56,644 nt of DNA, from positions 322,386 to 379,029 of IMG/VR virus record IMGVR_UViG_3300043080_000590. One strand, written 5' to 3'. The position numbers and the translations under genes are program-made. The notes under the pieces are model-generated. The model saw only the letters and a program-made list of their open reading frames with translations. It was not told the DNA's origin and did no database searches. This DNA comes from a virus. Lineage: Duplodnaviria > Heunggongvirae > Uroviricota > Caudoviricetes. This document shows, in pieces, positions 6,394 to 32,862 of the stretch (position 1 is the stretch's first letter; each line of letters begins with the position of its first letter).

Positions 6394-6467
6394 TTATCTA
6401 AGAGAAAAGTTTAACCGCTTTTCTCTTTTTTATTATGTTATAAGAAAAACATAGGAGATGGGTAGTT

Positions 6468-7478
6468 TTGGGATATGTATATCGCTATACAGACTTAGAA
6501 GATAATATAATCAAATACGTGGGGATTGTATGGTCTGAAAATAGAAGCTTATATCAAAGAATAAAAGAACATAACAATGAAAAATGGTGCGTTGGTAAAA
6601 AATGGAAAATAGAGTATCTTGAAGAAGGAATAAAAACAAGAACAGATGCTGAATATATGGAAGCTCATTATATTTCTTTATATAAAACTTATGAATATTT
6701 CAATATTAAAAAAGCAAATTGGGGAATTAGTAGTTTTATCCCAATTAGAGATGACTGGCAGTTATATGATTTTAAGAAACAAGAAGAAATAATAACTTTA
6801 AAACAAACAAATATAATTTTGCAAAAGAAATTAGAACAATTAACAAAAGAGAATAATACATTAAAAAATACATTTGATTTAAATATGAAATTGATGAAAG
6901 AATTAGAGGAATTAAAAAGAGAAAATACTTGTTTGAAATTAAAAGAAAATCAAATAAAAGAAGTTATACAAGAACCAACAACTCAACAGGATTATACGTT
7001 TACAAAGTATAAGGAAAAAGGATATGTTCCTGACTTTATTTTAAATAAAACTTTTTATAAAAATATTTCTAAAAAGAATAAAAGTAATAATAACACAAAG
7101 AAAGATTACAACAATCCTAATGGATATTTTTATAAGAAAAAATCAAAGTTCAACAATAGCGTTTCCATACCATGTAAGTTGCTTTTGTATATAAATGGAA
7201 AAAAGAAAGAATATATGATTTTCGATTCTTTAAAAAAGTGTGCTGAATTTTGTGGACTTCATAGTTATGATGTTGTAAAATCAATGGAGTATCAAGAATA
7301 TAGAACATTTTTTTATTGGAAAGAAAGTGAAAATTATTCTTACTTTGAACCATTATTTCCTAGAGAAGAAAAGTTTTTAGAAAATTATGAAGTATTAATT
7401 AGGGTAAGTGGTATAACTCCATTAACGCAAAGTGGAAAGGAATATTTTGAAAACAAATATTATAAACGATGTTATTAA
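6468..7478 (+). CDS. GIY-YIG-like nuclease domain protein with coiled coil
   Basis: N-terminal GYVYRY...KYVG...QRIKEH and a later conserved E. Confidence 0.6.
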   Translation: MGYVYRYTDLEDNIIKYVGIVWSENRSLYQRIKEHNNEKWCVGKKWKIEYLEEGIKTRTDAEYMEAHYISLYKTYEYFNIKKANWGISSFIPIRDDWQLYDFKKQEEIITLKQTNIILQKKLEQLTKENNTLKNTFDLNMKLMKELEELKRENTCLKLKENQIKEVIQEPTTQQDYTFTKYKEKGYVPDFILNKTFYKNISKKNKSNNNTKKDYNNPNGYFYKKKSKFNNSVSIPCKLLLYINGKKKEYMIFDSLKKCAEFCGLHSYDVVKSMEYQEYRTFFYWKESENYSYFEPLFPREEKFLENYEVLIRVSGITPLTQSGKEYFENKYYKRCY

Positions 7479-7564
7479 TATTTTTTAGACTCACGAATTA
7501 AGATTTTGTGAGCCTTTTTATTATATAAGCAACATTTTATATATATTTTTTCATAAGAAGGAAG

Positions 7565-8575
7565 GTGTTATTTGTTATGATAGAAAAATATAAAACAATT
7601 GATGATATTTTAAATAATTGTCCTAAGAATCAAACCATTTTAGATAATTATATAAGAGCATATTCAATTATAAACAATCCTAATTATAAAAATATTGTTT
7701 GTTCTATATCAGGTGGTAGTGACAGCGATATTGTTTTAGATATTTGTTATAGATGTGATATAGATAATAAAATAACTTATGTGTGGTTTGATACTGGGCT
7801 AGAATATCAAGCGACAAAAGACCATTTTAAATATTTAGAAGATAAATATAATATAGAAATAAAAATTCATAAACCTAAAAAATCTATTCCACTTGCTTGT
7901 AAAAAATACGGACAACCATTTATAAGCAAACAAGTTAGTGAATATATGCAGAGATTGCAAAAACACGGATTTAAATGGGAAGATAAATCATTTGATGAAT
8001 TATATGAAGAATATCCAAATTGTAAAATGGCACTAATGTGGTGGTGCAATATGAAACAATATAAATCATTCAACATTTCTTGGAATAAATATTTAAAAGA
8101 ATTTTTAATAGAAAATCCACCAACATTTCAAATATCAAATCTTTGTTGTACTCACGCTAAGAAAAATGTAATTCATAAATTAATAAAGGATTTAAATTAT
8201 GATTTAAGTATTATAGGTGTAAGAAAAGCAGAAGGTGGAGCGAGAGCTGTTGCATATAAAAATTGTTTTGATGAAAATCCTGATGGTTGTGATAACTACC
8301 GACCTGTATTTTGGTATACCAATAAAGATAAAGAAGAATACAATGATTTTTTTGAAATTACACTTAGTGATTGTTATTTGAAATATGGATTACGAAGAAC
8401 AGGTTGTTGTGGTTGTAGTTATGCAAAAGATTTTGAAGCTGAATTAGAAATAATTCAAAAATATGAACCTAAACTATATAAAGCTGTAAATAATATCTTT
8501 AAAGACGCTTATGATTATACAAGAAAATATAAAGAGTTTGTAAAGAAGAAAAATGAAGAAAATGAGAAAGAATAA
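7565..8575 (+). CDS. PAPS reductase family (PP-loop) protein
   Basis: SISGGSDSD, DTGLE, GVRKAEG, RTGCCGC. Confidence 0.85.
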   Translation: MLFVMIEKYKTIDDILNNCPKNQTILDNYIRAYSIINNPNYKNIVCSISGGSDSDIVLDICYRCDIDNKITYVWFDTGLEYQATKDHFKYLEDKYNIEIKIHKPKKSIPLACKKYGQPFISKQVSEYMQRLQKHGFKWEDKSFDELYEEYPNCKMALMWWCNMKQYKSFNISWNKYLKEFLIENPPTFQISNLCCTHAKKNVIHKLIKDLNYDLSIIGVRKAEGGARAVAYKNCFDENPDGCDNYRPVFWYTNKDKEEYNDFFEITLSDCYLKYGLRRTGCCGCSYAKDFEAELEIIQKYEPKLYKAVNNIFKDAYDYTRKYKEFVKKKNEENEKE

Positions 8576-8624
8576 AATTTTTAAGATATAAAAAATATAA
8601 AAAAGAAAGGTGGTATACATAAAA

Positions 8625-9984: not shown

Positions 9985-10211
9985 TGTTATTTTTTAATAC
10001 AGTAATATTGATACAAAAGTACTGTATGCCTACAATCACAAGTTGTAACCATTTACTTTCAAATATATTAACATCAATACCTTCTTTTATCCAAGTTATG
10101 TATTCTTTTAAAGTATTTACTTTCCAATATGTTAGTATCAATACTATTTTTGAATATCATAAATCGATTTGTAATAAGAATATTTACTTTCCAATATGTT
10201 AGTATCAATAC
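9985..10211 (-). CRISPR. CRISPR mini-array B: 3 clear and 1 degenerate 30-nt repeats, 3 spacers (37, 34, 36 nt)
   Basis: Repeat GTATTGATACTAACATATTGGAAAGTAAAT at 10182-10211 and 10115-10144; variant at 10051-10080; degenerate copy at 9985-10014 (19/30), leader-distal. Confidence 0.88.
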
Positions 10212-10452
10212 CCGTTTAGTATACAGTAGTATATTTTATTGATATTTCAAGTATCAAATCTGTCTACCTCCATTGAAAAGTTATTTTCAAACATTATTTT
10301 TTATTCATCATTTACTTTATTCTCACAAAAACATAAGTAAATAAAGTGTTTTCAAACTTTCTGTCTATCTCTTAGTAATTTTACATTATTATACATCGAC
10401 AGAATTTAAAAAACTAAAAAATAAAAAGTATTTATACTATAATATTGAATTT
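10212..10452 (-). promoter_or_regulatory. CRISPR leader, homologous to 32071-32309
   Basis: Collinear inverted copy of the region upstream of array A. Confidence 0.8.
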
Positions 10453-10586
10453 GGTGAGTGGTGGGCTTCTTAGGTCAAAGCGGTGCAAGTCTTAAAGTTC
10501 TATCGCAAGTATTGAACGATATGTGAAGTGAACTACCCTCACCTTTCGGACGGTAAATCGCCCGAAGTCACCAACTAAAGGTGCTT
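10453..10586 (-). ncRNA. Structured ncRNA copy B (tracrRNA-like)
   Basis: GC-rich multi-stem element with compensatory changes versus copy A; contains anti-repeat-like segments. Confidence 0.75.
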
Positions 10587-10618
10587 ATAAAAAATAGCTC
10601 TTAAAAACTTACAATATT

Positions 10619-10647
10619 ATAATAACATATTATTTTCTGTTTGTCAA
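10619..10647 (-). promoter_or_regulatory. Sigma-A-type promoter driving ncRNA B and array B
   Basis: TTGACA-17-TATTAT(AAT), same architecture as 31855-31883. Confidence 0.8.
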
Positions 10648-10693
10648 GTATTTTTTATTAGAAAAATAAATTTTAAGAAATGAGTGTGATTTA

Positions 10694-11548
10694 ATGAATA
10701 ATTTAATTCCACCTTGTTCTTATCAAGGCGGTAAACAAAGACTTGCAAAACAAATTGTAGATATTATATATAAAGAAAATAATATTGATAAAAATACAAA
10801 GTTTTTTGATATTTGTTGTGGTAGCGGAGCTGTTAGTTTAGAATTAATAAATAATAACTTTAATCCTAATAACATTACAATGATTGATATAAATATTTTT
10901 GGACTTTTCTATGAATATGTTTCTAAAAATAAATTTGATTTAAATATTTTTAAAGAAGAAATAGATAAATTACCTGATAAAGAATACATACAACTTTACT
11001 TAAAACAATTAAGTAATTTACCTATCGATAAAGAAAAATTAGTATATCAATATTTATTATTGCAAGCAGGTAGCTTTGGTAGCAAACAAATTTATATAAA
11101 GGACGATAAATGGAAGAATAACACATTTAGAAATTATTGGCAACCTACTAAAAATAGTAATAGGAAAAGTCCTGTCAACCCTATGATGCCAATGGTTGAT
11201 ACATTATTTGAAAGGGTAGAAAATATTGTAAATAATTTAAGTGGTAAGATTGTTGCATACAATGATGATATTTTTAATATATTAAATATTTTTTCTAATT
11301 TAGATAACAATGCGATTATTTACATTGACCCACCGTACTCAAACACGACAAAATATAAAGATAGTTTTGATATTTATGAATTGATTGATAAGTTAAAAAA
11401 CATAAATGATTTTGCTATTTATATATCAGAAGGTGTTGAGTTAGATAATGCCAAAAATACTTATTTACTTTCGAAAGGTAGGACTAAAGGTAATATTAGT
11501 GGTAATGTAATCAAAAAGCCTGTTGAGGAATGGTTAAATAAATTCTAA
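10694..11548 (+). CDS. Dam-like (D12 class) adenine methyltransferase
   Basis: SYQGGK, FDICCGSG, IDPPY. Confidence 0.85.
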   Translation: MNNLIPPCSYQGGKQRLAKQIVDIIYKENNIDKNTKFFDICCGSGAVSLELINNNFNPNNITMIDINIFGLFYEYVSKNKFDLNIFKEEIDKLPDKEYIQLYLKQLSNLPIDKEKLVYQYLLLQAGSFGSKQIYIKDDKWKNNTFRNYWQPTKNSNRKSPVNPMMPMVDTLFERVENIVNNLSGKIVAYNDDIFNILNIFSNLDNNAIIYIDPPYSNTTKYKDSFDIYELIDKLKNINDFAIYISEGVELDNAKNTYLLSKGRTKGNISGNVIKKPVEEWLNKF

Positions 11549-11575
11549 AAATAAATTTTGAGAGGAATATAAATA

Positions 11576-11908
11576 ATGAAATACAAACTAACAACTAAAG
11601 AATATATAACTTGGATAAAAAAAGATATAAAAAGATTATATTATATAATATGTTATTTTACTAAAGCATTGTTTAATGTAGATAAAAATATTTTACTAAG
11701 TAAAGATTTTAAAGTGGATAGTTATATTATTACTTTTCATTCTGACGATTATAACGGAGCTTGTTATGATGAAAGAAGATTTGATAATTTTAAAGATGCT
11801 TATGAACTTTACGAATTAAGTAAAAATCAAGAATGTAGAGAAGATTTTGTAAGATTGCATATTTCTATTGAATATATTGGAAACATAGAAATAGCAAGAT
11901 ATAAATAA
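11576..11908 (+). CDS. Hypothetical protein; 5' end nearly matches a spacer of array B
   Basis: RBS GAGG; 11591-11624 is 28/34 identical to the spacer at 10081-10114. Confidence 0.75.
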   Translation: MKYKLTTKEYITWIKKDIKRLYYIICYFTKALFNVDKNILLSKDFKVDSYIITFHSDDYNGACYDERRFDNFKDAYELYELSKNQECREDFVRLHISIEYIGNIEIARYK

Positions 11909-12325: not shown

Positions 12326-12763
12326 ATGATGAAAAAATTAAAATTATGGATTTATAATTTTATTGTTAATGCTATTGCTGCTGATGACGATTTAAATTTA
12401 ACAGGTAAGCAAAGAAGTCAATTATTTAGTTTAACAAATAAATTTAAGGTTAGAAATTGTAAAAAGAATTTAATTTATATAAGTCACCCTTATCAAGATA
12501 AAAAAGAAAATATTGAGGATATAGAAAAAATCATCAATAGTTTGGCAAAGAAATATGATGAATATACATTTGTTTCTCCTGTTCATTGTTTCGGATTTAT
12601 GTATACAACCGTTTCTTATGATAGAGGTTTAGACTTCTGTCTTGATTTGTTAGATTGCTGTGAACAAATGTGGGTGTTTGGTGATTATACAAATAGTACA
12701 GGTTGCACTAAAGAAATTGAATATTGTATTGCAAATAATATTAAATATAAAATTTTTAGTTAA
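12326..12763 (+). CDS. DUF4406/nucleoside deoxyribosyltransferase-like protein
   Basis: YISHPY, SPVH, LLDCCEQMWVFG, STGCTKEIEY. Confidence 0.7.
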   Translation: MMKKLKLWIYNFIVNAIAADDDLNLTGKQRSQLFSLTNKFKVRNCKKNLIYISHPYQDKKENIEDIEKIINSLAKKYDEYTFVSPVHCFGFMYTTVSYDRGLDFCLDLLDCCEQMWVFGDYTNSTGCTKEIEYCIANNIKYKIFS

Positions 12764-31913: not shown

Positions 31914-32070
31914 AAGCACCCTTGCTTTAGATTTTTCTAAAGTTATGTGTCTGGTGCTTCGGGCGATTTACCGTCCGAAAGGTGAGGGTAACTCATTTCA
32001 CATACAGTTCAACACTGCTGTAGAGTTTTAAGACTTGCACCGCTTTGACCTAAGAAGCCCACCACTCACC
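31914..32070 (+). ncRNA. Structured ncRNA copy A (tracrRNA-like)
   Basis: Stems AAGCACC/GGTGCTT, CGGGCG/CGTCCG (loop ATTTAC), GGTGAG/CTCACC, AACTC/GAGTT, TACAG/CTGTA; covaries with copy B. Confidence 0.78.
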
Positions 32071-32309
32071 AAATTCAATATATGGTATAAATACTTTTTA
32101 TTTTTTTAGTTTCTAATTTCTGTCGATGTGTGGTAATGTAAAATTGCTAAGAGATAGACAGAAGCTTTAAAAACACTTTATTTACTTGTGTTTTTTGTGA
32201 GAATAAAGTAAATGATGAATAAAAAATAATGTTTGAATTTAACTTTTCAATGAGTTCGACAGATTTAGTATTTCAAATACTAATAAAACATACTACTATA
32301 CACCGAACG
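32071..32309 (+). promoter_or_regulatory. CRISPR leader
   Basis: Non-coding, conserved with 10212-10452, abuts the first repeat. Confidence 0.8.
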
Positions 32310-32862
32310 GTATTGATACTGATATGTTGGAAAGTAAATTTTGGGAATGTAACAACAAATGCGTGTTCCTTACGTATTGATACTGATATGTTGGAAAGTA
32401 AATTCTTCCTGAGCTGCAACAATAGTTGCCCAGTTTTCAGTATTAATATTGATATATTGGAAAGTAAATAATGCCACTTTGATAAGTGCTGATGCTTTTT
32501 GTTAGTATTAATATTGATATATTGGAAAGTAAATCAGATAAAACCTTTTTTGTTTTTGATTCAATCTTTGGTATTAATATTGATATATTGGAAAGTAAAT
32601 GTCTGAGAACTAAAGATATTTCTAATCTCTGCATTACGTATTAATATTGATATATTGGAAAGTAAATTACCTCTAATTTGACCAAACTCTAAAGAATCTG
32701 TAGTATTAATATTGATATATTGGAAAGTAAATTCAATGAAATATATAAAATATGTTGGTGAATGTGAGTATTAATATTGATATATTGGAAAGTAAATGTT
32801 GTCAGGTAATGTTAAGAGTACACTCAATGTTAGTATTGATACTGATATGTTGGGAAGTAAAT
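32310..32862 (+). CRISPR. CRISPR array A: 9 x 30-nt repeats, 8 spacers (34-37 nt)
   Basis: GTATTAATATTGATATATTGGAAAGTAAAT x6; variant GTATTGATACTGATATGTTGGAAAGTAAAT at repeats 1, 2 and 9 (repeat 9 has one extra mismatch). Confidence 0.97.

Follow-up and report, generated by a model that had tools for sequence, protein, structure and literature searches.

Array B and its neighbourhood

The subject of this analysis is spacer B2 of a small CRISPR array, designated array B, and its imperfect match to ORF110, a gene carried by the same phage genome. Both lie in a window of 56,644 nucleotides (the whole stretch of DNA that was analysed), which is the reverse strand of bases 72349–128992 of a 224,405-bp IMG/VR virus record. 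This jumbo-phage record, estimated by CheckV to be 92% complete and with a G+C content of ~25%, contains three CRISPR arrays (A, B and C) that have a common leader and are built from one family of 30-nt repeats, which begin with GTATT and finish with GGAAAGTAAAT. The three arrays hold 18 spacers in total, with lengths of 34–37 nt.

Array B (10051–10211, minus strand) consists of three 30-nt repeats and two spacers. The repeats at 10182–10211 and 10115–10144 are identical, and the terminal one at 10051–10080 is degenerate, with four changes and with its 3′ GAAAGTAAAT retained. Spacer B1 (10145–10181, minus strand, 37 nt) is leader-proximal and showed no significant match in the phage genome, in the relative described below or in viral_contigs. 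Spacer B2 (10081–10114, minus strand, 34 nt) adjoins the degenerate terminal repeat and, because it is leader-distal, is the older of the two. The leader (10212–10446, minus strand) is common to arrays A and C and to array B of the relative. Between it and a promoter-like site sits a GC-rich folded RNA element of 126 nt (10447–10572, minus strand). The promoter-like site (10647 to 10619, minus strand; TTGACA-17-TATTAT with an extended −10 TG, 11/12 matches) was the best in the region and points toward the folded RNA, the leader and the array; the promoter region is 97% conserved between the two lineages compared below. The leader at one end of array B, the degenerate repeat at the opposite end and the GTAAAT at the 3′ end of the repeat together fix the direction in which the array is transcribed. 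A unit of ~450 nt, made up of the 126-nt element and the leader, stands ahead of each array. Searches by blastn and with a covariance model showed that the folded element has only three copies in the genome, all of them array-linked, and an Rfam search of the element returned no family. Within the array B leader (minus strand, window 10290–10330), ATTTACTT is followed ~20 nt on by AAAGTAAAT, and the pair occurs at the same place in arrays A and C. The latter is a sense copy of the 3′ end of the repeat and the former, upstream, is its complement; the pair could be a small hairpin or a repeat remnant.

Divergent from array B, and placed between it and ORF110, is a gene for a D12-class adenine DNA methyltransferase (10694–11548, plus strand). 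ORF110 itself (11576–11908, plus strand) is an orphan gene of the phage lineage, of which only two alleles are known. Neither Pfam nor PHROGs has a family for it, and nothing useful about its function came from the ESM Atlas. A HMMER search for relatives over 1.8 billion cluster representatives found, beyond its own cluster, only low-complexity matches. Only the two alleles were recovered from viral and metagenome contigs, from a word-indexed protein search and from the contigs of cluster members, and a synteny search through the neighbouring methyltransferase led to the same single sister contig only.

In two animal-gut metatranscriptomes, contigs were found that span the folded RNA, the leader and the first repeat (window 10181–10578). 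They comprise several variants, 87–100% identical to the carrier, one of which continues into a different first spacer. The flanking genes are not covered by these contigs; ORF110 is among the uncovered genes, so they hold no allele information. Related arrays exist in these animal-gut samples, and the leader unit is over-represented there compared with the flanking genes. The contigs hint only weakly at expression, DNA carry-over being possible, and at habitat.

The repeat was compared with the type I-B repeat of Clostridioides difficile (as quoted in PMC7064742), and the result showed that 24/31 aligned columns are identical, including the 3′ GTAAAT. A Pfam search of the whole 224-kb record (an estimated 92% complete, so that a gene on the missing part is possible) for Cas1, Cas3-HD, Cas4, Cas5, Cas6, Cas7 and Cas8b found none of them, and control genomes were positive for each. 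By repeat, spacer length and protospacer adjacent motif (PAM) only, the arrays appear to be I-B-like; a cas8b-cas7-cas5-cas3-cas6 operon was not seen in the phage.

Spacer B2 matches the 5′ end of the carrier's own ORF110

B2, read as the reverse complement of 10081–10114, was aligned without gaps to 11591–11624 (plus strand), a protospacer-like site spanning codons 6–16 of ORF110. The result showed 28/34 identities, with mismatches at positions 3, 4, 5, 6, 15 and 31, so that 26/28 bases agree over positions 7–34. An earlier reading of this DNA, made from the letters alone (the sequence-only reading), had reported these coordinates, both counts and the run of four mismatches at spacer positions 3–6, all of which were borne out by reading the sequence and by the alignment. 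Its observation that the match runs in frame with ORF110, giving TLKEYITWIKE for the spacer and TTKEYITWIKK for the self site, was confirmed, as was the CTA that it had noted beside the self site. This triplet lies in the PAM position (11588–11590, plus strand) and forms codon 5 of ORF110; it reads CCA in the sister lineage, a change of Leu versus Pro. The same reading had counted a single synonymous mismatch, TAC/TAT, which holds for position 15, but ACT/ACA at position 3 is synonymous too. Three of the four seed-side mismatches fall in a single codon (TTA versus ACT). At least four of six mismatches falling within positions 1–8 has a hypergeometric P of ~0.02.

To gauge chance, B2 was shuffled 1000 times (mononucleotide shuffles) and each shuffle was compared with both strands of the 224,405-bp genome. 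None reached 28/34 (maximum 27, mean 23.7), a check that the sequence-only reading had called for and by which chance was rejected. For real genomic 34-mers, 2.5% have a non-self match of at least 28, owing to true internal repeats. Among the 18 spacers, only B2 (28/34) and C8, a spacer of array C (34/35), exceed every shuffle. The match of B2 to ORF110 is a real homologous one. The sequence-only reading was also right about orientation: the CRISPR RNA (crRNA) of B2 and the ORF110 mRNA run in the same sense, and only DNA can therefore be the target of B2.

The sister allele of ORF110 fits B2 better than the self allele

The second ORF110 allele, 93% identical to the carrier's in amino acid sequence, is found on contigs L009 and L130–L135, which come from one series of JGI samples. 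These sister contigs are collinear with the window at ~95% nucleotide identity, and more distant parts of the genome are 77–86% identical. At the orthologous sister site B2 matched 30/34 with a CCA flank, compared to 28/34 with a CTA flank at the self site. A three-way comparison showed that the spacer alone differs at positions 3, 4 and 6, the sister allele alone at position 16, and the carrier allele alone at positions 5, 15 and 31 and at the PAM base, with spacer and sister in agreement at 5, 15 and 31. At the variable codon 7 the spacer has TTA and the self copy ACT, with the sister's ATT intermediate between them. From these states, B2 appears to be a third allele of the ORF110 family, and the lineage that bears B2 appears to be the one that has moved furthest from the spacer version. 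The comparison also supports an argument of the sequence-only reading, that PAM-proximal mismatches shield the self copy. The loss of the PAM (CCA to CTA), which that reading had missed, probably protects no less than the seed mismatches do.

Differences between the two alleles are concentrated at the target. The 37-nt span of PAM plus protospacer holds 5/16 of the nucleotide differences (P = 0.023) and 4/8 of the amino acid differences (P = 0.005) in what was a post hoc test. When the two lineages were compared with each other, the five mismatches in 37 nt placed the target site only in the top 9% of regional coding windows, and this value is not leaned on here.

Further protospacers of B2 were sought with the exact 34-mer in viral_contigs and with a 28-nt degenerate pattern in viral_contigs and metagenome_contigs. 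The exact 34-mer brought up nothing new, and the degenerate pattern recovered only the sister contig and L012. The L012 site (L012:317–350; metagenome contig VAPL010634163.1) lies in an unrelated gene of a Vibrio-like, repeat-flanked cassette; it matches B2 at 28/34 overall and at 27 of the last 28 nt, contains a 28-nt stretch identical to the sister ORF110 allele (peptide KEYLTWIKE) and has no CCW flank. As a target of B2 it was judged a coincidence, given that it was found via a tailored pattern over hundreds of millions of records and is without a CCW flank.

Reciprocal better-than-self matches and a probable family PAM

In the sister lineage array B stands at the same place with different contents, namely a 23-nt and a 34-nt spacer and more degenerate repeats. 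The array contents thus differ between the lineages despite flanks that are ~95% identical. Sister spacer 1 (23 nt) matches a site at 12677–12699 (minus strand; listed as 12677–12702) in the carrier's gene for a DUF7768/deoxyribosyltransferase-like protein (12326–12763), with a 5′ flank of CCT. The match is 21/23, a score reached by 0/1000 shuffles, and the same spacer matches the sister's own DUF7768 copy at only 18/23. Because B2 and sister spacer 1 match better across lineages than in their own copies, each array B fits the other lineage better. The remaining 17 spacers of the carrier showed no match in the 20-kb sister locus L135.

A further match was found in array C. Spacer C8 (genome 172868–172902; L117:1069–1103) matches 34/35 within the phage's own ResIII helicase gene (target at genome 174863–174897; L117:3064–3098), at codons 3–14, ~2 kb from array C and with a CCA flank; spacer and target both lie outside the window. 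Its single mismatch is at seed position 3. The near-perfect self-target may be tolerated either via this one seed change or because the decayed repeat downstream blocks crRNA maturation. The helicase gene targeted by C8 also holds a LAGLIDADG (intein-type) domain.

The 5′ flanks of the three protospacers of the lineage are CCA (sister ORF110), CCT (DUF7768) and CCA (helicase), that is, CCW in 3/3. The sequence-only reading had proposed that the PAM be read from kin protospacers, and this is the motif that they give. CCW accounts for 1.56% of the trinucleotides in the genome, so the chance of 3/3 is 3.8e-6. The presence of CCW at all three protospacers confirms the orientation of the arrays and implies that the spacers are products of an adaptation machinery that selects for the PAM. 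In C. difficile, the type I-B PAM is CCA/CCT, with YCN accepted in interference and CCN in adaptation, and the seed comprises the first 8 nt except position 6 (PMC4556805, PMC8406132). By these rules the self ORF110 site is not a target, because its CTA flank is neither YCN nor CCN and because positions 3, 4 and 5 are mismatched.

These data make it most likely that B2 derived from a kin allele. The proposal of the sequence-only reading that B2 came from the homologous gene of a related phage is thus supported by the 30/34 match to the sister versus 28/34 to self, by the states shared at positions 5, 15 and 31, by the CCA flank and by the reciprocity between the two arrays.

A probable kin-directed guide and the alternatives to it

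We consider it likely, with a probability of about 0.7, that the cas-less, type I-B-style mini-array of this jumbo phage holds, in B2, a spacer directed against kin. In this mechanism, array B would be transcribed from its own consensus promoter through the folded RNA and the leader, and the resulting pre-crRNA would be matured and loaded by the Cas6 and Cascade of a type I-B system in a presumed host. The crRNA of B2 would pair only with the template DNA strand of ORF110. Its true target would be the ORF110 allele of a competing relative with a 5′ CCW PAM and a matching seed, and Cascade–Cas3 would cut a superinfecting genome bearing that allele. The carrier's own ORF110 would escape via its CTA PAM and the mismatched seed positions 3, 4 and 5, and the differences at the self site may have arisen, or may have been kept, as such an escape.

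Several observations weigh against this mechanism. The perfect protospacer that the sequence-only reading had hoped for was absent from every collection searched, namely IMG/VR, JGI metagenome contigs and GenBank phages. The sister site, with CCA and with mismatches at positions 3 and 4, is at best a weak or priming target, so any exclusion of that lineage by B2 would not be a clean one. The changes at positions 3, 4 and 6 may reflect an unsampled third lineage, drift of the spacer or escape in a common ancestor, among which two alleles cannot place them. The N-terminal third of ORF110 is generally more variable, with 10/16 differences within the first 96 nt. When the genomes of 185,579 species were scanned twice, an array with this repeat turned up in no bacterial genome, and the Cas partner is hypothetical. 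Finally, B2 stands beside a degenerate terminal repeat, the sister array B is decaying (a 23-nt spacer and a repeat with five changes), and B2 may be a fossil.

The last point has a version of its own, in which B2 came from the ORF110 family, through a kin phage or a captured host array, and is now inactive, so that the self mismatches would be ordinary divergence. It is compatible with a kin origin of B2. The four changes in the terminal repeat, the truncated 23-nt spacer and degenerate middle repeat of the sister array and the want of a known perfect target all speak for it, and in C. difficile leader-distal spacers show more mismatches and non-canonical PAMs (PMC4556805). Against it, the two leader-proximal repeats of array B are identical and the terminal repeat retains its 3′ GAAAGTAAAT, the promoter matches 11/12 of the consensus in a region 97% conserved between the lineages, and the self-specific changes strike the PAM and the seed, as selection against self-targeting predicts. 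The contigs from RNA libraries over the folded RNA, leader and first repeat also argue against inactivity, weakly, as they may be DNA carry-over. An inactive B2 is thus possible but unlikely. A regulatory role for B2, which the sequence-only reading had offered as its alternative, is much less probable. Partial pairing of B2 crRNA–Cascade near the start of ORF110 would repress the carrier's own gene uncut, much as CreA/CreR or scaRNA do. In favour of this, B2 matches codons 6–16 of ORF110 and C8, likewise, codons 3–14 of its target gene. The self site, however, has a CTA flank that is not YCN and a mismatched PAM-proximal seed, whereas known regulatory guides (CreTA, scaRNA) retain PAM and seed, and it is their distal part that is lost. 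With a guide in mRNA sense, there would be no pairing at the RNA level; the sister keeps ORF110 and the promoter region but holds other spacers, so guide and target are not co-conserved; and B2 fits the allele of the other lineage better than its own. Own-gene repression is therefore not supported, even though repression by effector-less arrays has been proposed for huge phages (PMC7162821).

Another alternative concerns the reader of the array rather than the direction of the guide: a phage-encoded TnpB/Cas12-like nuclease would read the arrays, the folded RNA serving as its tracr-like scaffold, in a type V-like system that would leave B2 directed at kin. Three IS605-type tnpB loci are present in the genome and a folded RNA stands ahead of every array. 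Pairing between the folded element and the repeat was predicted at −16.9 kcal/mol, marginally better than with shuffled repeats (P ~0.01–0.02). The Cas12f1-like TNB domain, however, gave three matches that are all ordinary IS200/IS605 tnpB genes (HTH_OrfB, OrfB_IS605, TNB), one beside a Y1 transposase, one whose frame a TAA stop interrupts and one located where the record ends. All three are at least 27 kb from any array and, as shown with the covariance model, no copy of the folded element is present at these loci. A Clostridial type I-B system, moreover, fits the repeat as well as the lengths of the spacers and the CCW motif, and reading by TnpB is accordingly very improbable. Chance resemblance in AT-rich coding sequence is the least credible of the alternatives. 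B2 is 76% A+T, and the unrelated L012 gene matches it at 28/34; on the other side stand the failure of all 1000 shuffles to reach 28/34, the reading frame of the match, and the orthologous sister site, which matches better and carries the PAM.

Protospacers near the arrays

All three identifiable protospacers lie 1.4–2.6 kb from the array that holds the matching spacer (B2 and ORF110, sister spacer 1 and DUF7768, C8 and the helicase). The chance of such proximity is ~(5 kb/224 kb) cubed, or ~1e-5, as a rough estimate. Search bias does not account for it, because the whole 224-kb genome was searched. Nor does hypervariability, because the region is ~95% identical between the lineages and distant parts are 77–86% identical. 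The targets of the Saccharolobus portogloboviruses SPV1 and SPV2 are also close to their mini-arrays, for a reason that the authors call unclear (PMC6858448).

An array and a resistant allele could form a linked poison–antidote cassette, akin to a CRISPR 'drive' among co-infecting phages, an idea that we put forward as speculative and rather improbable. Linkage of the guide to the resistant allele would be selected, as a recombinant that combined the guide with a sensitive allele would destroy itself. In a co-infecting relative the sensitive allele would be cut, and recombinational repair from the carrier would copy the resistant allele together with the adjacent array. If true, this explanation, common to the present phage and SPV1/SPV2, would be general. 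The free-standing homing endonucleases of T-even phages, responsible for marker exclusion, offer a parallel. Their genes spread in a similar way. As would happen in the present case, a nuclease specificity encoded beside a resistant allele cuts, in co-infecting relatives, the sensitive allele of a nearby gene. Unlike these, an RNA guide and a host nuclease would act here.

Comparison with known virus-borne arrays

SPV1 and SPV2 carry cas-less arrays of 1–2 spacers with a leader and target each other (Medvedeva et al. 2019, PMC6858448). In the carriers the orthologous self locus is point-mutated, which prevents self-targeting (PMC6858448). Cas-less arrays, a leader, a mutated self locus and array-proximal targets are found here as well. 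The present case differs in its carrier, a bacterial jumbo phage exceeding 200 kb that has three arrays (of 2, 8 and 8 spacers) with a type I-B-like repeat, and in that a 126-nt folded RNA lies between promoter and leader. It differs also in that neither a perfect target nor a host system with an identical repeat was found.

Prophages of C. difficile (phiCD630-1/2 and others) carry arrays that are used by the type I-B system of the host (PMC4173771, PMC4556805, PMC8406132). These resemble the present arrays in a 29–30-nt repeat ending in GTAAAT, a 5′ CCA/CCT PAM and a PAM-proximal seed, and also in degenerate leader-distal repeats, in being phage-borne and (here probably) aimed at other phages, and in self-matches tolerated by a divergent PAM. 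The repeat here, however, is only ~77% identical and an extra folded RNA accompanies the leader. Moreover, the carrier is huge, probably virulent and from animal-gut samples, rather than a temperate phage of a known host.

Arrays of huge phages (>200 kb) have been described as compact, often without genes for adaptation or interference, and a use of host Cas proteins against competitors has been proposed (Al-Shayeb et al. 2020, PMC7162821). The targets in that paper are given at the level of a network, whereas PAM loss, seed mismatches and reciprocity are seen here at the level of alleles, and the present carrier is without any Cas effector. CreA/CreR, scaRNA and long tracrRNA resemble B2 as repeat-flanked guides that match, imperfectly, the 5′ end of a gene from their own genome. 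Those guides keep PAM and seed, do without distal pairing and co-evolve with their target. Here, by contrast, PAM and seed are lost, and the guide is missing from the sister.

Phage-against-phage arrays are thus known already. What is new here is the anatomy of self-protection, the apparent reciprocal targeting of sister lineages, the family PAM and a second, independent array-proximal instance. The comparison of alleles offers a single-nucleotide view of how a phage might carry a kin guide safely, with its own PAM lost, three seed bases changed and the PAM kept by the sister. With this case, reciprocal kin targeting near the array would reach beyond small archaeal viruses to include a bacterial jumbo phage whose array is of the Clostridial I-B type. 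A host that has a type I-B system bearing this repeat is predicted from the repeat and the CCW motif.

Other features of the arrays and the genome

Array A (32310–32862, plus strand) consists of nine repeats and eight spacers, with a folded RNA and leader upstream at ~31950–32309. Array C (genome 172383–172932, outside the window) has seven spacers and an eighth, C8, beside a half-decayed repeat. No match of the array A spacers was found in GenBank phages, and patterns of B1 and A1 in which every sixth base was left free matched nothing in viral_contigs; in the collections searched, no spacer had a perfect protospacer. A scan of IMG/VR for further arrays of this repeat family gave 12 loci, all of them chance matches. 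The terminal spacer of array A, A8 (window 32828–32862 region), has a borderline self-match (shuffle P ~0.005) at genome 6878–6912, with 26/35 identities overall, 16/18 over the first bases and an AAA flank. In each of the three arrays the terminal spacer is the best self-matcher.

The folded RNA of array A (31957–32081) carries the stem variants of the copy in the sister array B (L135:8875–8999). The carrier's copies in B (10447–10572) and C have the same sequence and differ from that of A, and the variant stems keep their pairing. This pattern suggests that leader units may have been exchanged or converted between arrays and between lineages. In two JGI contigs whose ORF110 is identical to the carrier's (L010:653–1137 and L011:29–447), the methyltransferase, ORF110 and the array B leader are joined to array C with its spacers and to the endolysin gene, parts that stand 53 kb apart in the carrier genome. 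The join could be either a recombination across the shared ~400-nt leader, acting as a direct repeat, or an assembly join.

The three IS200/IS605 insertions with tnpB are located at genome 53162–53350, 145229–145436 and 224145–224351 (L137, L138 and L136, respectively). The sister lacks a 2.2-kb segment of the window (6398–8585) with two ORFs of 336 amino acids (6468–7478 and 7565–8575); in L135, 7023 is joined to 7062. The segment, which lies between gyrA and the genes upstream of array B, was either gained by one lineage or lost by the other.

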